Shown here: piece after piece, positions 1,971 through 8,081 of the stretch | How the letters are laid out: every line of letters begins with the position of its first letter | How positions within the stretch are numbered: the stretch's first letter is position 1 | Origin: an archaeon | GTDB lineage: Archaea > EX4484-52 > B79-G9 | Assembly: GCA_043813875.1 (NCBI GenBank) | Contig: JBDRKP010000027.1 | Coordinates: 1 to 26,295 of the forward strand | DNA: 26,295 nt | Direction: 5' to 3' | The notes under the pieces: model-generated | The model's database searches: none | What the model saw: only the letters and a program-made list of their open reading frames with translations | Told to the model about the DNA's origin: nothing | Translations under genes and position numbers: made by a program

Positions 1971-2372
1971 ATGGCGCTAAGGGAGATCCAGAAGAAAGCA
2001 GGGGTTTTTGAGGCATCTAATGATGCTTTGTGTTTCGGGCTTAGTTTTTCGGAGTTGAATTATCTTAGTGTAATCAAGGTTGAAGCTGTCGTCATGGAGG
2101 GGCTTAAAGATGCCTCAATGCTAAAGACGAAGTTCAATGTCATGGTGCTTGCTCTTGATCTTAGTATTTTTCGCGTTTTCGGGATTATCGAGAGGTATAT
2201 TGATACCCTTCTGACTCATGCGAAGGTTATTGTCAAGCTGAAGGTTGAGACTGATCTTGATGGCGCCAAGAATGTGGTTGCTCAGCTTGCAAGACCGCTG
2301 AATCTCCAGCCTGAGCAGTATGTTGAGGCGGAAGACGGGGTCTGGCTGATATTGACGAGGATATGCTTATGA
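1971..2372 (+). CDS. Hypothetical protein
   Basis: 133-aa ORF with host-like codon usage, AT-rich upstream region, end overlaps next gene. Confidence 0.6.
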   Translation: MALREIQKKAGVFEASNDALCFGLSFSELNYLSVIKVEAVVMEGLKDASMLKTKFNVMVLALDLSIFRVFGIIERYIDTLLTHAKVIVKLKVETDLDGAKNVVAQLARPLNLQPEQYVEAEDGVWLILTRICL

Positions 2373-2716
2373 ATGAGATATTGATTATTATTCTTCTGGT
2401 TGTGGTTGTTTTGCTGCTTTTCCGTCATGCCCTCATACTTGAGAAGAGGCTGAAGGAGACTGAGTCCAGGAAGCAGAGCCAGTCGACTCGTTATGGGCAG
2501 ATCTTTGAGCAGATGGTGCCTTTTTCCAAGGATTTCCCGTTCGATCCTAAGAATTTCAGGTTTATCGGCAATCCTATAGACGGTGTGGTGTTCGAGGAGG
2601 ATAAGATCGTTTTCTGCGAGATAAAGCTCAATAATTCCACTCTGTCGCCTAAACAGAAAAAGATAAAAAGCCTTGTCGAGGATAAGAAAGTCTATTGGAA
2701 AGAGGTCAGGGGTTAA
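2363..2716 (+). CDS. Membrane-anchored Holliday junction resolvase-like endonuclease (Endonuc_Holl family)
   Basis: N-terminal hydrophobic helix followed by GQIFEQMVPF, FRFIGNPIDGVVF, IVFCEIK and LSPKQKKIK; alternative ATG at 2369. Confidence 0.85.
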   Translation: MLMNEILIIILLVVVVLLLFRHALILEKRLKETESRKQSQSTRYGQIFEQMVPFSKDFPFDPKNFRFIGNPIDGVVFEEDKIVFCEIKLNNSTLSPKQKKIKSLVEDKKVYWKEVRG

Positions 2717-2720
2717 ATAT

Positions 2721-3305
2721 ATGATGAATTTTTCATTTTCAAGAGAGGAGATCAAGGATCTTGTTGTTTCAGCTCTGGCGCTAGGGTTTATTTTCTCGGT
2801 GGGTTACGGGCTGGATCCGGTCATGATATTGATGATCACTGCTATCGTTTCTGTGTCTTTTATCCCGCATGAACTTGCTCATAAGTATTTTGCGATGAAG
2901 TACGGGTGTTTTGCGAAGTATCAGATGTGGAAGAATGGGTTGATTTTTGCTCTTGTTCTTGCGATTGTCACGAAGGGTGGCTTTGTTTTTGCTGCGCCGG
3001 GAGCGGTCATGATATATACTGCTTACCATGACAGGTATGGCGTGAGGCAGGTGAATCTTACGCCTAAGCAGAATGCGTTTATATCGGCGGCGGGGCCTGT
3101 GACGAATATCCTTATTGCGTTGATGTTTTTGCCGCTTGCAGGGACTGGTGAGTTTTTCAGTATGATTGTCTATGTGAATAGTTTCCTTGCTTTTTTCAAC
3201 CTGCTGCCTATTCCGCCGCTTGACGGTTCGAAGATCATATGGTATAATATCCTTCTCTGGGGCGTGTTGATTGGGGCAAGCTGGGTATTGCTTTCTTTAG
3301 CCTGA
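2721..3305 (+). CDS. Site-2 protease (M50 family) membrane metallopeptidase
   Basis: HELAH zinc motif, ISAAGPVTN, FNLLPIPPLDG; ATG 2721 just after upstream stop. Confidence 0.93.
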   Translation: MMNFSFSREEIKDLVVSALALGFIFSVGYGLDPVMILMITAIVSVSFIPHELAHKYFAMKYGCFAKYQMWKNGLIFALVLAIVTKGGFVFAAPGAVMIYTAYHDRYGVRQVNLTPKQNAFISAAGPVTNILIALMFLPLAGTGEFFSMIVYVNSFLAFFNLLPIPPLDGSKIIWYNILLWGVLIGASWVLLSLA

Positions 3306-3341
3306 TAAGATATATAAGTCCGATATGCGTTATACTATTGT

Positions 3342-3623
3342 ATGCTTATTGAGATCATTGAAGTGCTCAGGGCTGGTGTCGTTGCGGTTATCCAGAGCGC
3401 GATAAATACGAGCAAAGTATTTGTCATGTCGCTGATCAAGGCCTTTATCATATTCAGGGATGGTGTCCAGACAGCGAGTTATCTTGAGATATTTATTGTG
3501 GTTTCTGTTTTTGCTTTTATCGGCTATATGGCTTTCAAGTTCCTTGTCGGGTCGGCGGCGCAGTTCGCGAAGTATCTGTTTGTACTGATATTGCTTTTTG
3601 TGCTGACGATTCTGATTCTTTGA
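3342..3623 (+). CDS. Small membrane protein, unknown function
   Basis: 93 aa with hydrophobic segments; TATA-like TATATAA upstream. Confidence 0.65.
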   Translation: MLIEIIEVLRAGVVAVIQSAINTSKVFVMSLIKAFIIFRDGVQTASYLEIFIVVSVFAFIGYMAFKFLVGSAAQFAKYLFVLILLFVLTILIL

Positions 3624-3934
3624 TGTGTGTATTGTCTGCATGTTAGGGGTTTTGTGGTTTTCCTGTTTGCTTTCTTTGGGTTTAGGGTCTGATTTTTGGG
3701 TGATTATGTGTTGGCTTTATAAAGGTATTGTCACATATAGGAACATTGAAAGGGAAACAGTTGATTTATATCTTGATTCTCATGAAGAGTTAAGTATGTC
3801 AAGTATACATTGAAAATTTATTGTATATAGAATTTTATTGTATCAAAAATAATATTTTGTCAGAGCTGTGTAATTTTATACGCGGTTCATAAAGTGTTAA
3901 ACTGTTTCTACTAAATTAGGAATCGTGATAGAGT

Positions 3935-5161
3935 ATGGAATGTTTTAGAGAATTAGGTATTATTGAGCCTATTTTGAAGTCAATAGAAGAAATGCATTTT
4001 GAGGAGCCGAGCGAGATCCAGAAAAAGGCTATCCCTCTTGTTATTGCAGGAAAGGATATCCTTGCAGGGTCTGCGACGGGTTCGGGCAAGACGCTTGCGT
4101 TCGGTTGCGGTATCATACAGAATATTGTCAGGGGGAATGGCGTCCAGGCTTTGGTTCTTGCGCCTACAAGGGAGCTTGCAGAGCAGGCTACTGAGTCTTT
4201 GAGAAATTTTTCAAAGTATAAGCCGCTGAGGATTATTTCTGTCTACGGCGGTGTGGCGATAGGGCCGCAGATTGCGCAGCTGAAGACTGCTGATGTTGTG
4301 GTCGGGACGCCGGGAAGGATACTTGATCATCTTGAGAGAAGGACTATCAAATTGAGTGATATAAAAATACTTGTTTTGGATGAAGCTGACAGGATGCTTG
4401 ATATGGGATTCAGGTATGATGTCGAGAAGATTATCAGGGTGTGTCCGACTAAAAGGCAGACGATGCTCTTTTCGGCTACTATCGAGGGTGATGTAGGTCA
4501 TCTTGCCCAGAAGTATATGAAGGATCCTGTGAAGGTTTCTTTAGTGTCTTATGTCGATCCGTCAAAGCTCACCCAGGTCTATTATGATGTCGAGGACAGG
4601 ATGAAGTTCTCGCTTCTGGTGCATCTTTTGAAAAATGAGCCAGCAGGGCTTGTGATGGTTTTCTGCAATACGCAGAGGAATACGGATTTTGTTGCCAATA
4701 ACCTGAAGTTTTCAGGGATAGAGTCGCTTGCGATCCACGGCGGATTTTCGCAGGATAAGAGGACAAGAGTGATGAAGCAATTCAACTCCATGAAAAGAGT
4801 GTATGTTCTTGTCTGTACGGATGTCGCTGCAAGAGGGCTTGATATCAAGGGTGTTTCGCATGTGTATAATTACGATATTCCGCGGGATACTAAGACGTAT
4901 ATCCACAGGATCGGGAGAACTGCAAGGGCAGGGGAAGAAGGCAAGGCCATAAGTATCCTCTCAAGCAGGGATTATGATAATTTTACCCGCGTCCAGAGGG
5001 ACAGGTCGCTGAGAGTCCAGAGGGAAGAAGTGCCGTTTGTTGAAAGGGTGAGTATAAGGGTTCTTGATAATCCTATGAGGGGCGGAAGAGATGATGCCCG
5101 GGGACCACGGCGTTTCGGGAATTCAGGCAGGAGACCTTTCGGCGGCCCTAGAAGGCGCTAA
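3935..5161 (+). CDS. DEAD-box RNA helicase (DeaD/CshA-like)
   Basis: Q motif, TGSGKT, PTRELA, TPGR, DEAD, SAT, ARGLD, HRIGRTAR; R/G-rich C-terminal tail. Confidence 0.97.
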   Translation: MECFRELGIIEPILKSIEEMHFEEPSEIQKKAIPLVIAGKDILAGSATGSGKTLAFGCGIIQNIVRGNGVQALVLAPTRELAEQATESLRNFSKYKPLRIISVYGGVAIGPQIAQLKTADVVVGTPGRILDHLERRTIKLSDIKILVLDEADRMLDMGFRYDVEKIIRVCPTKRQTMLFSATIEGDVGHLAQKYMKDPVKVSLVSYVDPSKLTQVYYDVEDRMKFSLLVHLLKNEPAGLVMVFCNTQRNTDFVANNLKFSGIESLAIHGGFSQDKRTRVMKQFNSMKRVYVLVCTDVAARGLDIKGVSHVYNYDIPRDTKTYIHRIGRTARAGEEGKAISILSSRDYDNFTRVQRDRSLRVQREEVPFVERVSIRVLDNPMRGGRDDARGPRRFGNSGRRPFGGPRRR

Positions 5162-5191
5162 GTTCCTTATTTTTTCTTTTTTCGTTGTTTT

Positions 5192-5312
5192 GAGCGGGAT
5201 GGGTCATTTGACCCACGACTGCGATGAGAAACAGGGTTGTTTTGCCTGATTGTTCTGGTCTATGTCCTAAGTAGACTTAAGTCTTTGTTCAACGAAATCG
5301 CCCCGTCCGCCA
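5192..5312. ncRNA. Candidate structured RNA/DNA element (~120 nt), copy 1
   Basis: GC-rich intergenic island with terminal stem GCGG(G)ATGGG/CCCGTCCGC and internal hairpins TGGGTCA-tt-TGACCCA, GAAACA-gggt-TGTTTT, GTCTAT-gtcctaa-GTAGAC and palindrome AGACTTAAGTCT; ends in GCCA; G-U pairs favour the + strand. Confidence 0.5.
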
Positions 5313-5381
5313 GACAACGAACCGTATGTGCTCAATAGCTTTAAAAATATTAATTTCCATTTAGTAGTATTCGGTGGTATA

Positions 5382-5975
5382 ATGAGTTTTATGTTAAAGC
5401 TACTTGCTGGTAAACCGGGCTTTTCTGCAACGTATAAAGATATAGAAGCCAGTTTCAAAGATAAATATGCCCGCATAGTGCCTATGTGGCAGGATGAGGG
5501 ACCAGACAAATTCATTAGAATGCACCTTGATGAAACAACTAAACAAAAGTATGTGGACTTTGATGCGGAAAGCGGACGCTACACGTTAAATCAAAAAGGA
5601 AAGAGAATACTTGTTAAAGAAACAGAAGATCTTCCATTGTATTTTACAGCTTTATCTCCTGAAGAGGCGATGGGCGTATTTAAATTTATTAACGCATGTA
5701 GAATTCAAGCACCAAGAGAGAAAGCATATTATTTTGACCGTTCGCTTATTTCCTATAAAACGCTAATTGATGCTATTGAGAAATGCCTCGTGGGTGAACC
5801 AATTAACATCGATGATATTACTAAAATGAATTGCGGCATTTTAAAAGGAGACACCCGTGCAGTGGACTTGGGAGGCGTATTAACATATCTGGAGGAATCA
5901 GGTATTCTTACTTCTGATTTGAATAATGCGGATGAAGATGTGCTTGATAAGTTCATTAAAGAACGATACGGTTGA
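5382..5975 (+). CDS. Hypothetical protein, possibly winged-helix-containing, atypical codon usage
   Basis: GGTGG at 5373-5377 before ATG 5382; GRYTLNQKGKRIL resembles a wHTH wing; A-ending codons unlike its + strand neighbours. Confidence 0.65.
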   Translation: MSFMLKLLAGKPGFSATYKDIEASFKDKYARIVPMWQDEGPDKFIRMHLDETTKQKYVDFDAESGRYTLNQKGKRILVKETEDLPLYFTALSPEEAMGVFKFINACRIQAPREKAYYFDRSLISYKTLIDAIEKCLVGEPINIDDITKMNCGILKGDTRAVDLGGVLTYLEESGILTSDLNNADEDVLDKFIKERYG

Positions 5976-5982
5976 TTTTTAC

Positions 5983-6120
5983 TGGCAGGCGAGGGCGACT
6001 CTTCGACTGTTACGGCAGCCTCGCCGCATTGGTTCTATTGGTTAGCGGTCGCTGAACAAAGGATTTTGTCACTCCGCTACGGCTCCGTCCGAATCGCTTT
6101 GCGACTCGACAAAATCTCAT
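5983..6120. repeat. Structured element related to 5192-5312, inverted orientation, with expanded hairpins
   Basis: Reverse complement reads CTTTGTTCAGCGA...GTCGCCCTCGCCTGCCA versus copy 1 CTTTGTTCAACGA..ATCGCCCCGTCCGCCA; hairpins GATTTTGTC(6062-6070)/GACAAAATC(6108-6116) and GGCGAGG/CCTCGCC. Confidence 0.5.
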
Positions 6121-6161
6121 AGTTAATCTTTTTTTGTTTTGTTCACTTTCTGGTGCGGTAA

Positions 6162-6395
6162 TCAGAGGTGTTCTATCGCTTTGTTTATCGCAGGCAGTAT
6201 CGCTACTATCTCTTCTTTCAATAATCTGCCCAGTTTGCTGAAGCTGTATTCGCCGGCTGCGCTTTTGTTTTCTCTTGAAATCTGCAGTTTTTTTGTGCCG
6301 CCGTTGTATGAGTAGACGCTTACGGATATTTTTGTCTTTTCGAATTCTATTGTTTCGCTGAACAATTCTTTGTCCAGGTTTTTGTCAAATGCCAT
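6162..6395 (-). CDS. Small conserved-looking protein (77 aa), possibly PC4/whirly-like nucleic acid-binding fold
   Basis: GGAGGAG RBS (6401-6407) before ATG 6395; MAFDKNLDKELF...VSVYSYNGGTKKLQISRE...SKLGRL has a beta-strands-then-helix pattern. Confidence 0.7.
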   Translation of the reverse strand: MAFDKNLDKELFSETIEFEKTKISVSVYSYNGGTKKLQISRENKSAAGEYSFSKLGRLLKEEIVAILPAINKAIEHL

Positions 6396-6489
6396 TTTAT
6401 CTCCTCCTTTCTCTTTGTTATTTGGTAAGTGTGTTTTTTTATATGTCTTTTGATGTGAGATTAATATATTATCGGAACTAATTTTAGTT

Positions 6490-7569
6490 ATGGCTAATGA
6501 TAAGGTGCGAAGGCTGCTTGATGTGAGCAAAATAGTCATAAGGGATTGCTGTCTTTCTGGCGGGGCGATTGTCGCTGCGAATTCTAGCAAGGATTATTTT
6601 CCGCGCGAGGCGAAGAATTACAGGTTCGTGTGGCCGCGTGATGCGTCTTATACATGCATCGCTGCCGGGCTTTTAGGCATGAGGGATATCCAGGAGCCTT
6701 TTTTTGAATGGTGCATGAAAGCGGAGGGCTGGGCGCGGACAGGGTTGTTTTATGAGAAGTATTACGTCAATGGCAGGAAGGCGTTGCGCCATTTCCAGCC
6801 AGACCAGACCGGGAGTGTTCTTTTGGCTGTGCATGATTATTATAAGGATGATGATGGGGTTCCTGCCAGATTTGAGCAGCTTGTGAGGAAGTCTGCTGAT
6901 GGCCTGTGCCGTGTTTGGTCAAAGGATCATTTCCGTGTGGTCACGCAGGATCTCTGGGAGGAGCGGCTGTGTTTTCCGGATTTAAAAGAGAATTTTATGT
7001 ATTCGCTTGCTGTCTGTTACAGGGGGCTAATGTGTGCCAATGAGTTGATACCTAATGAGCTGTGGGTGAGGGTTGCGGGTGAGATGAAGGATGCGCTGCT
7101 TATGGCTTCTAACGATAAGGGTCATTTTTATAGGTCTTTTGGGAAGATCCCTGATGAGCGGGTCGATGCTTCGCTTCCTGGGCTTGTGTGGCCGGCGGGG
7201 GTTGTCCAGGCGGATGATCTGCGTATGGTGAAAACTGTTTCTTTGATTGAGGGGAGGATTGTGAGGGATTTTGGCGTGTACCGGTATGAGCATGATGAGT
7301 ATGACGGGTGGATGTACAGGAAGAACGTGCATCGCAAGAAGGGGGCGGGCTATTGGCCGCTTTTGAGCTTGTGGATGGCTGTCTATTATCTTGAGTTGGG
7401 GGATAAGGCTACTGCTTTGAAGTATTATAACAAGGTTCTTCTTGATGTTGGTGATGATGGATTTATTCCTGAGCAGGTTTTTGATAATGATGTGCAGGTC
7501 TCTGTGTCGCCGCTTTGTTGGGCGCATTCTATGTTTGTGATCGCGTCGAAGAGGCTGGGTTATCTTTGA
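6490..7569 (+). CDS. Glycoside hydrolase family 15 (glucoamylase-like)
   Basis: GAIVAA, YRFVWPRDA, QPDQTG, DLWEE, YRYEHDEYDG, IPEQV, SPLCWAHSMF. Confidence 0.93.
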   Translation: MANDKVRRLLDVSKIVIRDCCLSGGAIVAANSSKDYFPREAKNYRFVWPRDASYTCIAAGLLGMRDIQEPFFEWCMKAEGWARTGLFYEKYYVNGRKALRHFQPDQTGSVLLAVHDYYKDDDGVPARFEQLVRKSADGLCRVWSKDHFRVVTQDLWEERLCFPDLKENFMYSLAVCYRGLMCANELIPNELWVRVAGEMKDALLMASNDKGHFYRSFGKIPDERVDASLPGLVWPAGVVQADDLRMVKTVSLIEGRIVRDFGVYRYEHDEYDGWMYRKNVHRKKGAGYWPLLSLWMAVYYLELGDKATALKYYNKVLLDVGDDGFIPEQVFDNDVQVSVSPLCWAHSMFVIASKRLGYL

Positions 7570-8081
7570 TTTTTCAGGTACTGGTCGATTGCGTTCTTCA
7601 GCTGTTCTGGTTTCTGTGAGCCGATGAGTAGTTTTTTTCCATCTGTTAATTCTATCTGTAGGCCGTGGTTGCCGGAGACGTTATATGCTTTGCCTTTGCC
7701 GAAGAGACCGCATCTTATGCCCCAGCCGCCGTATTCTGTTATGGGTTGATAGGTTCTTGTGTAGTATTTTGTGTCTTTTTCTATTGGTATTTTTTTGTAT
7801 TTCAGGTGGAATGGGGTGAATCTTAGGTATAGGCCGTCAGTACGTACTTCTGTTGTCAGCTTTAATTTGTAGAAGAAGAGTGGAAATAGTATTCCAAAAC
7901 CGACCCAGAATAAAGTTAACATTGTGTCTGACATCGGGTTGTTTCCGACAGGGGTGCCGAAGATTACCTGTGTTATGAATATGTACCAGATGATGATTGT
8001 AGGGGGGAGGATCAAAATCCAGATACATGTTTCCCTGAATTGCTGCTCTTCGCGGAATAGGGGGTGGTTTTTTTCTTGCAT
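7560..8081 (-). CDS. Membrane protein (DUF6141-like)
   Basis: FREEQQF, two TM segments, YQPITEYGGWGIR, AYNVSGNHGLQIEL, LLIGSQKPEQL. Confidence 0.8.
   Translation of the reverse strand: MQEKNHPLFREEQQFRETCIWILILPPTIIIWYIFITQVIFGTPVGNNPMSDTMLTLFWVGFGILFPLFFYKLKLTTEVRTDGLYLRFTPFHLKYKKIPIEKDTKYYTRTYQPITEYGGWGIRCGLFGKGKAYNVSGNHGLQIELTDGKKLLIGSQKPEQLKNAIDQYLKNQR

Follow-up and report, generated by a model that had tools for sequence, protein, structure and literature searches.

An orphan gene of an Aenigmatarchaeota genome as probable cargo of an integron-type cassette with a lineage-wide attC-like site

Integrons are the classic gene-capture device of bacteria. Because their sites are cut between G and TT, the bases that follow GTT are part of the next cassette and should fit its R''. 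In classical attC sites, the extrahelical bases of the L stem are held to be necessary and set the choice of strand. Sedentary chromosomal integrons carry a homogeneous attC type per lineage, e.g. the repeats of Vibrio cholerae, and an isolated site is known as a SALIN (single attC site lacking an integron integrase). A folded single strand is also used by CTX phage, which exploits Xer recombination by mimicking dif. Here, a stretch of 26,295 nt (the window) from an EX4484-52 archaeon (Aenigmatarchaeota, DPANN; assembly GCA_043813875.1, contig JBDRKP010000027.1) was analyzed, in which an earlier note had pointed to an orphan gene of 197 amino acids (aa) bracketed by two inverted structured elements, referred to below as the left and the right element. 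The orphan gene is very probably the cargo of a single mobile gene cassette of the integron type (positions 5288-6122, Table 1), whose site is a member of a lineage-wide family. The window's own genome (G000, 1.64 Mb; window contig C27) was compared with relatives labeled genome:contig (e.g. G001:C178), the comparison set being 42 genomes of the same order.

From archaea, integrons were reported only in 2022. In the parts of that paper drawn on here, Ghaly et al. 2022 (Sci Adv, PMC9668308) describe integrons and attC clusters in 75 archaeal genomes from nine phyla with only six integron integrases (IntIs), most of the cases being attC clusters without IntI, and report that the bacterial IntI1 recombined eight of nine archaeal attCs. 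They list one Aenigmatarchaeota genome with five attCs, call the attCs of the phylum of "restricted diversity", and excluded singleton attCs; the window holds a singleton. The present locus shares with the archaeal integrons one open reading frame (ORF) followed by a folded imperfect inverted repeat running from AAC to GTT, an unpaired spacer with a second stem, a crossover that falls between G and TT, arrays of head-to-tail units on the same strand, cargo genes that are ORFans, and an integrase that is mostly not nearby. It differs from classical attC, including those of Ghaly et al., in a cassette-specific outer stem, a side module of ~50 nt, an L stem without a conserved bulge, a dif-like arm of 11 nt after the crossover, and the absence of IntI from the 42 genomes searched. 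The Aenigmatarchaeota attC tested in Ghaly et al. 2022 (Data S9, PMC9668308) is of the classical bacterial-like type and unlike the present family. Three core words of the family were absent from the supplement of that paper (PMC9668308), as far as it was accessible, which is a weak check.

Other described systems share single traits with the family. Each of the four sites in the window's own genome is SALIN-like, an attC-type site that stands by itself with its gene and far from an integrase. The single lineage-wide site type and the arrays of mostly unknown genes recall sedentary integrons, whereas the present arrays are short (up to seven sites per contig), lie in tiny genomes, and come with no recognized IntI or attI. 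With archaeal XerA/dif, in the portion of Cortez et al. 2010 (PMC2958812) used here, the family has in common an arm on the crossover side, a cut at the arm/spacer border, and Xer-like enzymes only; as for CTX-type elements, a folded strand would be the substrate. Unlike Xer/dif elements, the family forms arrays of single genes rather than phage genomes, and its second arm, the L stem, is not dif-like. A literature search over titles and abstracts, with subscription journals outside its coverage, returned Ghaly et al. 2022 and general integron papers, none of them dealing with Xer-type recombinases and integron-like cassettes of DPANN archaea.

When 41 genomes (G000 among them) were searched at the DNA level, strong matches (E 3.5e-10 or better) appeared in nine, at up to three places per genome, and these covered only positions ~5972-6129 of the window, i.e. 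the right element. The copies were 78-90% identical, even across families of the order, and stood beside genes unrelated to those of the window. Their common build is (Y)TAAC or TGAAC, 2-3 unpaired nt, a stem of 8-11 bp with a variable part, 5-6 unpaired nt, and GTT; judged by sequence and predicted pairing, integron attC sites (R'', L'', L', R') are built in the same way. A covariance model (R1) was made from 11 sites (hand-made alignment A2). With filters off, its sole real match within positions 4900-7800 was 6047-6138 (89.8 bits; all others E > 1), and with default filters the same place was again the sole match in the whole window. Sites at E <= 0.01 were carried by 27 of the 42 genomes. 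In the window's own genome, blastn revealed no further copy of either element, whereas R1 located three sites beyond that of the window; all four are singletons on different contigs.

Covariation was evaluated in alignment A3, which comprised 36 sites at E <= 1 from 15 loci, four of them weak (E 0.037-0.08). Paired bases filled 91.6% of the cells, compared with 68.4% after shuffling and 27-49% with slid partners, and double changes occurred in 157 cells as opposed to 56 (0/500 shuffles equal in both cases); A3 was fitted to R1, which favours pairing, and the hand-made A2 goes in the same direction. In each of the 10 L-stem pairs, both partners vary across the 36 sites, and 92.4% of the L-stem cells are paired. 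Homologs and covariation, named in the earlier note as a check, were found for the right element. G-U pairs account for only ~9 of some 600 paired cells, a weak hint that pairing as DNA fits better than pairing as RNA. Of the 36 sites, 34 retain AAC and 35 retain GTT, and in every site both boxes, RYYYAAC and GTTRRRY, agree with the consensus at three or four of the four degenerate positions. The distance from R'' to R' is ~76-101 nt. The unpaired spacer has 2-3 nt in its 5' strand and 5-6 nt in its 3' strand; in several members the L stem is fully paired over 10-11 bp, asymmetry being confined to the spacer.

The sites follow genes and form arrays. A co-oriented ORF of at least 60 aa ended no more than 220 nt upstream of 27 of the 33 sites with enough flank, against 593 of 2000 random positions (29.6%; binomial p = 8e-10; the ORFs were counted mechanically). 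Same-strand arrays were found in G005:C162 (six sites, one weak), G022:C39 (seven, two weak), G036:C158 (three), G009:C188 (three), and others. The side module between outer stem and R'' includes CTCTTCG... and, twice, ATTGGTT in the window, and forms a hairpin, GGCGAGG/CCTCGCC, that extends back into the arm; related modules precede most family members (CTCTTCG in 9/36, CGCTTCG in 13/36, TTGGT in 18/36).

The crossover point was located with 21 pairs of adjacent sites. On average, 5.29 of the 6 nt after GTT paired with the 6 nt that precede AAC in the following site, compared with 3.62 of 6 for the site's own AAC (Wilcoxon p = 0.0003) and 2.99 for 1239 combinations of non-adjacent sites (Mann-Whitney p = 6e-11). 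The arrays stem from six related genomes (G005, G022, G036, G009, G039, G007), so these p-values overstate independence; the fit to the next site is nonetheless large. The rule offers a simple way to delimit cassettes and accessory genes in DPANN genomes. A first attempt to set the 5' boundary by the best 12-nt match was too noisy, with controls nearly as high, and the array test was used instead. GTT was verified by script at 5287-5289 and 6122-6124, and a cut between G and TT places the left boundary at G5287/T5288 and the right boundary at G6122/T6123. The left element is therefore the 5' end of the cassette. In agreement, 5 of the 6 nt after its GTT pair with the cassette's own R''; the predicted pairs join 5288-5295 to 6049-6056, with 5293 facing 6051 and with 5292 and 6052 unpaired, and they are formed in the junction fold described below. 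AAT occupies tail positions 10-12 in 30 of the 36 sites and is also present in the window's cassette start. This start, TTCAACGAAAT, recurs in G001:C178 and as the tail of L197:813. The tail to the right of the cassette, TTAATCTTTTT, lacks the (C/A)AAT of cassette starts.

Complementarity of the cassette ends extends beyond the site. For 24 cassettes, the stretch from 9 nt after GTT was aligned with the region upstream of the cassette's own R''; the mean score was 22.2, compared with 12.9 for 552 mismatched pairs (sd 2.3, 99th percentile 20.5; p = 4.5e-13), and 13 of the 24 exceeded the 99th percentile of this null. The 5' ends of three singletons in this set had been chosen by their fit to R'', for which the outer-stem stretch was not used. 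The two arms of the window scored 23. The complementary ends lie 0.3-2.2 kb apart and are specific to each cassette; since the arms differ from cassette to cassette, they covary. When positions 5960-6122 were joined by script to 5288-5335, the DNA fold reached -38.1 kcal/mol with 34 pairs between the halves, compared with -28.4 kcal/mol for the present neighbor, and 0/300 shuffles equaled it. The left and right elements are two sides of one branched hairpin that insertion opened between G and TT.

With this, the claim of the earlier note that the two elements are related and inverted, one of them carrying a ~48-nt insertion, proved real, although it would not pass on alignment and folding within the window alone. 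All strings quoted for them were found in place: CTTTGTTCAACGAAATCGCCCCGTCCGCCA at 5283-5312 (+) for the left element and, on the minus strand, CTTTGTTCAGCGA (6061-6049), ~48 nt, and AGTCGCCCTCGCCTGCCA (to 5983) for the right. The stems of the right element are GATTTTGTC (6062-6070) with GACAAAATC (6108-6116) and GCGAC (5996-6000) with GTCGC (6048-6052); the palindromes of the left one are AGACTTAAGTCT (5273-5284) and CGAAATCG (5294-5301). A local, ungapped-type alignment of the left element with the reverse-complemented right one recovered only the 13-mer (score 21), and a repeat search in the window gave 22 nt at 77%. The relatedness of the elements passes once the gapped second block is included. 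The interpretation of the ends as tRNA-like GCCA did not survive: ARAGORN found no tRNA gene in the window, Rfam gave no match, and the GCCA end is not kept in the counterpart from G001, which reads TTCCAAC there.

In the mechanism we propose, a tyrosine recombinase would cut and rejoin strands between G and TT. Insertion would thereby move the terminal part of the site to the opposite end of the cassette, where it would appear as TTCAACGAAAT followed by ~30 nt of outer stem; this relocated part would be the "left element". With 5966-6057, it would pair again into the long branched hairpin in a circle or a single strand, which by the model would fold as DNA. The suggestion that the elements are recombination-site-like ends of a gene-capture cassette is in this way supported by an attC-like site that occurs in arrays, the crossover between G and TT, and the complementary ends; the odd arrangement of an ORFan between two elements is explained by the ORFan being the cassette. 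The cassette may still be able to move. It occurs singly between the helicase gene and the small PC4-like gene, where each genus relative carries other DNA.

With respect to the enzyme, no tyrosine recombinase above the TIGR02249 cut-off for integron integrases (265 bits) was found in any of the 42 genomes (the window's own included), only Xer-like ones, and their matches leave TIGR02249 positions ~180-235, the region of the integron-specific domain, uncovered. An attI was not recognizable. A classical integrase may have escaped detection, as the completeness of the genomes is 57-96%. Of 49 recombinase genes, six lay within 5 kb of a site match, compared with 0.99 expected (Poisson p = 6e-4); the proximity is loose, with mixed orientation and gaps of 0.1-4 kb, and the expectation is rough (rounded genome sizes). 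In G005:C78, a recombinase of 274 aa stands divergent from a minus-strand array, and G002:C156 encodes a near-identical counterpart. In the window's own genome, contig C40 holds a recombinase remnant (L200, G000:C40:16422-16886; 70% identity over 44 aa to the G005/G002 enzyme) with one TAG and three TAA inside, ~80-180 nt from a family site; an intact Xer-like gene on contig C65 is distant (35%). By these sequences, the window's genome seems to have lost the array-linked recombinase.

The bases after the crossover may point to Xer-type enzymes, too. The consensus of the 11 nt there, TTATATTCAAT, agrees at 10 of 11 positions with the reverse complement of the left arm of Pyrococcus abyssi dif (sequence as given in the Methods of Cortez et al. 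2010, PMC2958812), and the cut falls at the arm/spacer border of this dif-like arm. At least 8 of 11 positions were matched by 25 of the 36 sites, the share among all 11-mers that follow GTT in the window's own genome being 1.06%. The cassette's flanks in the window are not dif-like, its junctions do not lie at a dif-like 11-6-11 site, and its right tail matches the arm at only 4 of 11 positions.

The neighbor to the right of the cassette may belong to the same machinery. Homologs of this small 78-aa gene (71-74%) occur in three of seven genus relatives, in two of the three directly beside the 274-aa recombinase. In an Atlas search, the nearest clusters of its product were unnamed; in one cluster, 15% of the members carried PC4, and a DUF3276 structure reached a TM score of 0.78. 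By sequence, the small PC4-like protein may be a single-strand-binding helper of the recombinase.

Several observations weigh against a cassette of the integron type or against its movement by an Xer-type enzyme. The window contains only one site, and its boxes are among the more divergent ones, GCTGAAC and GTTAATC each meeting three of the four degenerate positions. In the model alignment, the L stem shows neither conserved bulged (extrahelical) bases nor an insert column. The wrong-orientation control equaled the 13-mer score of 21, as did 28 of 1000 shuffles, and single-strand folds of either element alone had z-scores of -1.24 to +0.06 relative to shuffles. The left flank and junction gave no R1 match with filters off, and the left flank (5192-5287) had no relative in the DNA search of 41 genomes; from its sequence, it is possibly a stunted partner site, an uncertain assignment. 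With a singleton site and an unrecognizable left junction, excision may no longer be possible. Neither an empty site nor a circular junction was seen in the seven genus relatives or in public runs; the public DNA runs contained at most 0.13 of the window's words, as short identical pieces with no joints, and none of the runs listed was RNA. At its 5' end, the window's cassette agrees with the dif-like arm in only 6 of 11 positions, and the window's genome yielded no 11-6-11 dif site of matching form at <= 3 mismatches or in a looser scan.

A classical IntI with its extra domain, supplied from an unassembled region or by other cells as has been proposed for attC clusters lacking an integrase, would move the same cassette in an alternative that we regard as rather unlikely. 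Boxes and layout equal those of classical attC, the genomes are incomplete, and in the parts of Ghaly et al. 2022 (PMC9668308) referred to above most archaeal integrons are attC clusters without IntI, and eight of nine archaeal attCs were substrates of IntI1. However, none of the 42 genomes exceeded the TIGR02249 cut-off, though 27 carry sites; Xer-like recombinases lie near sites beyond expectation; the bases after the crossover resemble a dif arm; and outer stem and side module are not known from classical attC. On these findings, we hold an Xer-type enzyme about as likely as an outside-supplied classical integrase, with odds about even. Our fuller proposal is tentative: these DPANN archaea would capture genes in an integron-like way without integron integrase, the R stem imitating a dif arm, the exchange being of the Xer type at the arm/spacer border, with the 274-aa recombinase as the enzyme and the PC4-like protein as candidate helper; the window's cassette would have been stranded by loss of its recombinase (the C40 remnant). 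If true, the system would be a living relative of the integron ancestor or an independent reinvention. The family is lineage-wide in tiny-genome archaea, has parts beyond those of classical sites, and was found with Xer-type recombinases only; should an Xer-type enzyme move the cassettes, the step from chromosome-dimer resolution to gene capture, i.e. the origin of integron integrases, would become testable.

The other suggestion of the earlier note was an undescribed noncoding RNA or a motif family of the 3' untranslated region (UTR). A structured RNA, as a 3'-UTR or terminator motif common to many accessory genes with a left element alike only by chance, would suit the position 3' of co-oriented ORFs, the covarying stems, the T-run after the element in the window, and a G-to-A change in G027 that keeps a pair as G-U on the plus strand. 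Rfam had no hit at gathering score over the window and none at E <= 10 over 5150-6200, and so gave no match to a described family at any threshold (it contains no IntegronFinder attC model); G-U pairs are scarce, the bases after GTT fit the next site rather than their own, the cassette-specific complementarity spans 0.3-2.2 kb, and the arrays change their gene content and lie near recombinases. We therefore consider a purely RNA-level motif improbable; a terminator role alongside recombination is conceivable. Even less credit is given to terminal inverted repeats of a small transposon or miniature inverted-repeat transposable element (MITE) carrying the orphan gene. A single gene between inverted repeats and a patchy distribution would be in line with such an element; on the other hand, no transposase is visible in the window, as had been noted before, or was seen beside the sites examined (mechanical ORF lists; Pfam on six window proteins only), the arms vary between cassettes while MITE copies share theirs, the repeat does not include the L stem (6061-6117), which is conserved best, adjoining units share one site in head-to-tail order, and neither element has a further blastn copy in the genome. 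Functionless chance similarity in AT-rich intergenic DNA is negligible: it would account for the shuffle and control scores of the 13-mer and for the weak fold z-scores, but all family-level results (model matches, crossover, outer stem, covariation, junction fold) oppose it. The cassette of the integron type thus remains the reading we prefer, and its features are compiled together with the adjoining genes in Table 1.

Table 1. Features of the cassette region and its neighbors in the window
Feature	Position	Strand	Remarks
DEAD-box helicase gene	3935-5161	+	Pfam DEAD 3.9e-49, Helicase_C 2.6e-32; host gene left of the cassette, outside it
Left flank outside cassette	5265-5287	+	TCCTAAG 5265-5271; 6-bp palindrome AGACTT/AAGTCT 5273-5284; TT; G5287
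Probable gene cassette, 835 nt	5288-6122	+	From TT after G5287 to G6122; boundary rule: cut between G and TT
Cassette 5' end TTCAACGAAAT, predicted distal half of R'	5288-5298	+	Placed by the boundary rule; fits own R'' at 5 of 6 nt
Outer-stem 3' arm TCGCCCCGTCCGCCAGACAACGAACCGTAT	5298-5327	+	Pairs with 5966-5998
TATA-box-like TTTAAAAATATTAA	5340-5353	+	~30 nt before ATG; by inspection
Cargo ORF, 197 aa, ORFan	5382-5975	+	No Pfam match
Outer-stem 5' arm	5966-5998	+	Overlaps last codons and stop of cargo ORF
Side module, ~50 nt	5999-6048	+	Between outer stem and R''; the ~48-nt insertion of the earlier note
R'' box with extension TCGCTGAAC	6049-6057	+	Box proper GCTGAAC 6051-6057
L stem, 10 bp	6061-6070 with 6108-6117	+	Encloses variable part
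Inner hairpin within L stem	TCGC 6094-6097 / GCGA 6101-6104	+	
R' box GTTAATC	6122-6128	+	Crossover G6122/T6123; host or target DNA from 6123
T-run	6130-6145	+	By inspection
Small gene, 78 aa, PC4-like lead	6162-6398	-	No Pfam match; neighbor, outside cassette
GH15 gene	6490-7569	+	Right of small gene

The only match of the 197-aa cargo protein among 5.8 billion (5.8e9) proteins was itself, and no Pfam family was matched, so the description of the gene as an orphan holds. Its G+C fraction is 0.377, compared with 0.474 for the helicase gene and 0.494 for the GH15 gene; ORFan status and low G+C are usual for cassette cargo. An Atlas structure search gave nothing over TM 0.40. In the Atlas feature search, the nearest clusters contained AlwI or BpuJI_N families in 11-25% of their members and a FokI recognition-domain cluster ranked lower; the top matches (score 0.93, 186-194 features in common) are to be taken as a lead only. 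Judged by its sequence and position, the TATA-like box could be the cassette's own promoter, and inspection of the G001 cassette revealed a counterpart, ATATTTATAAATG, at the same place. The T-run after the site is likely the terminator of the cassette transcript; a further T-run, seen on inspection, directly follows the helicase gene, before the left element.

The earlier note had placed each element just 3' of a likely nucleic-acid-binding gene. The positions are correct, but the right element belongs to the plus-strand orphan gene and not to the minus-strand small gene, and the link to the helicase is unsupported because the DNA downstream of it differs in every genus relative. Helicase orthologs (74-76% aa identity) were present in 7/7 genus relatives; downstream of them, no family site, no small gene, and no GH15 gene was found. 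An empty site was found in none of the relatives. In four of the seven, helicase and DUF6141 genes lie 0.9-1.3 kb apart with other ORFs between them. Positions 5162-7559 of the window (from helicase to DUF6141, with cassette, small gene, and GH15 gene) are replaced by other genes in the genus relatives, and this interval is a variable spot that exceeds the cassette in size.

Some further observations concern sites elsewhere. The motif (G/C)ACT(C/T)TTC... or CGCTTCGCTCC recurs after the outer-stem arm, upstream of R'', and resembles the ACTTC before L'; by sequence, it may be a repeated protein-binding word. TTATGTTCAATAAAATTTCCATTTC in G000:C1 around 21398 (+) is near-identical to a cassette start in G036:C158; further cassette ends, beyond the four model matches, are probable in the window's own genome. 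Among the 80 stretches listed, of 119 from a degenerate-pattern scan of genome contigs, all but two looked like chance matches in unrelated bacteria; the two archaeal stretches were loci already in the set of relatives. Exact-core scans of viral and metagenome contigs gave one and two matches, all of them chance (inside genes, ~10 bits). A 270-nt piece (X4) from a public sequencing run contains the site core once more, in a different context.

The pairs of small gene and 274-aa recombinase are convergent, at 1504-1740 and 1789-2613 of L225 (G002:C156) and, with the recombinase first, at 486-1310 and 1498-1734 of L227 (G005:C78). A PHP-domain gene lies on the other side of the small-gene homolog, and in G005 that recombinase borders the cassette array. 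In L220 (G022:C28), positions 2118-5171 between a recombinase and family sites contain restriction-modification-like ORFs, named by eye from their first residues.

A homolog of the GH15 gene (61%) was found in another genus right after two family sites, on the opposite strand (L231, G009:C115; sites at 94-196 and 671-767, gene at 843-1913); GH15 genes may be a recurrent array border, or the arrangement may be a coincidence. Finally, a twin of the window's cassette is present in G001:C178. The two cassettes agree in the 5' end (GTTCAACGAAATCGCCCCC) and in the kind of 3' end but not in the ORF (129 aa in the twin); ATATAAC, a perfect 10-bp hairpin, and TCCTT directly precede the twin's crossover between G and TT. 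This twin (L147, 1727-2200) adjoins a tRNA gene (minus strand, by eye) and a truncated ORF6N-like frame.

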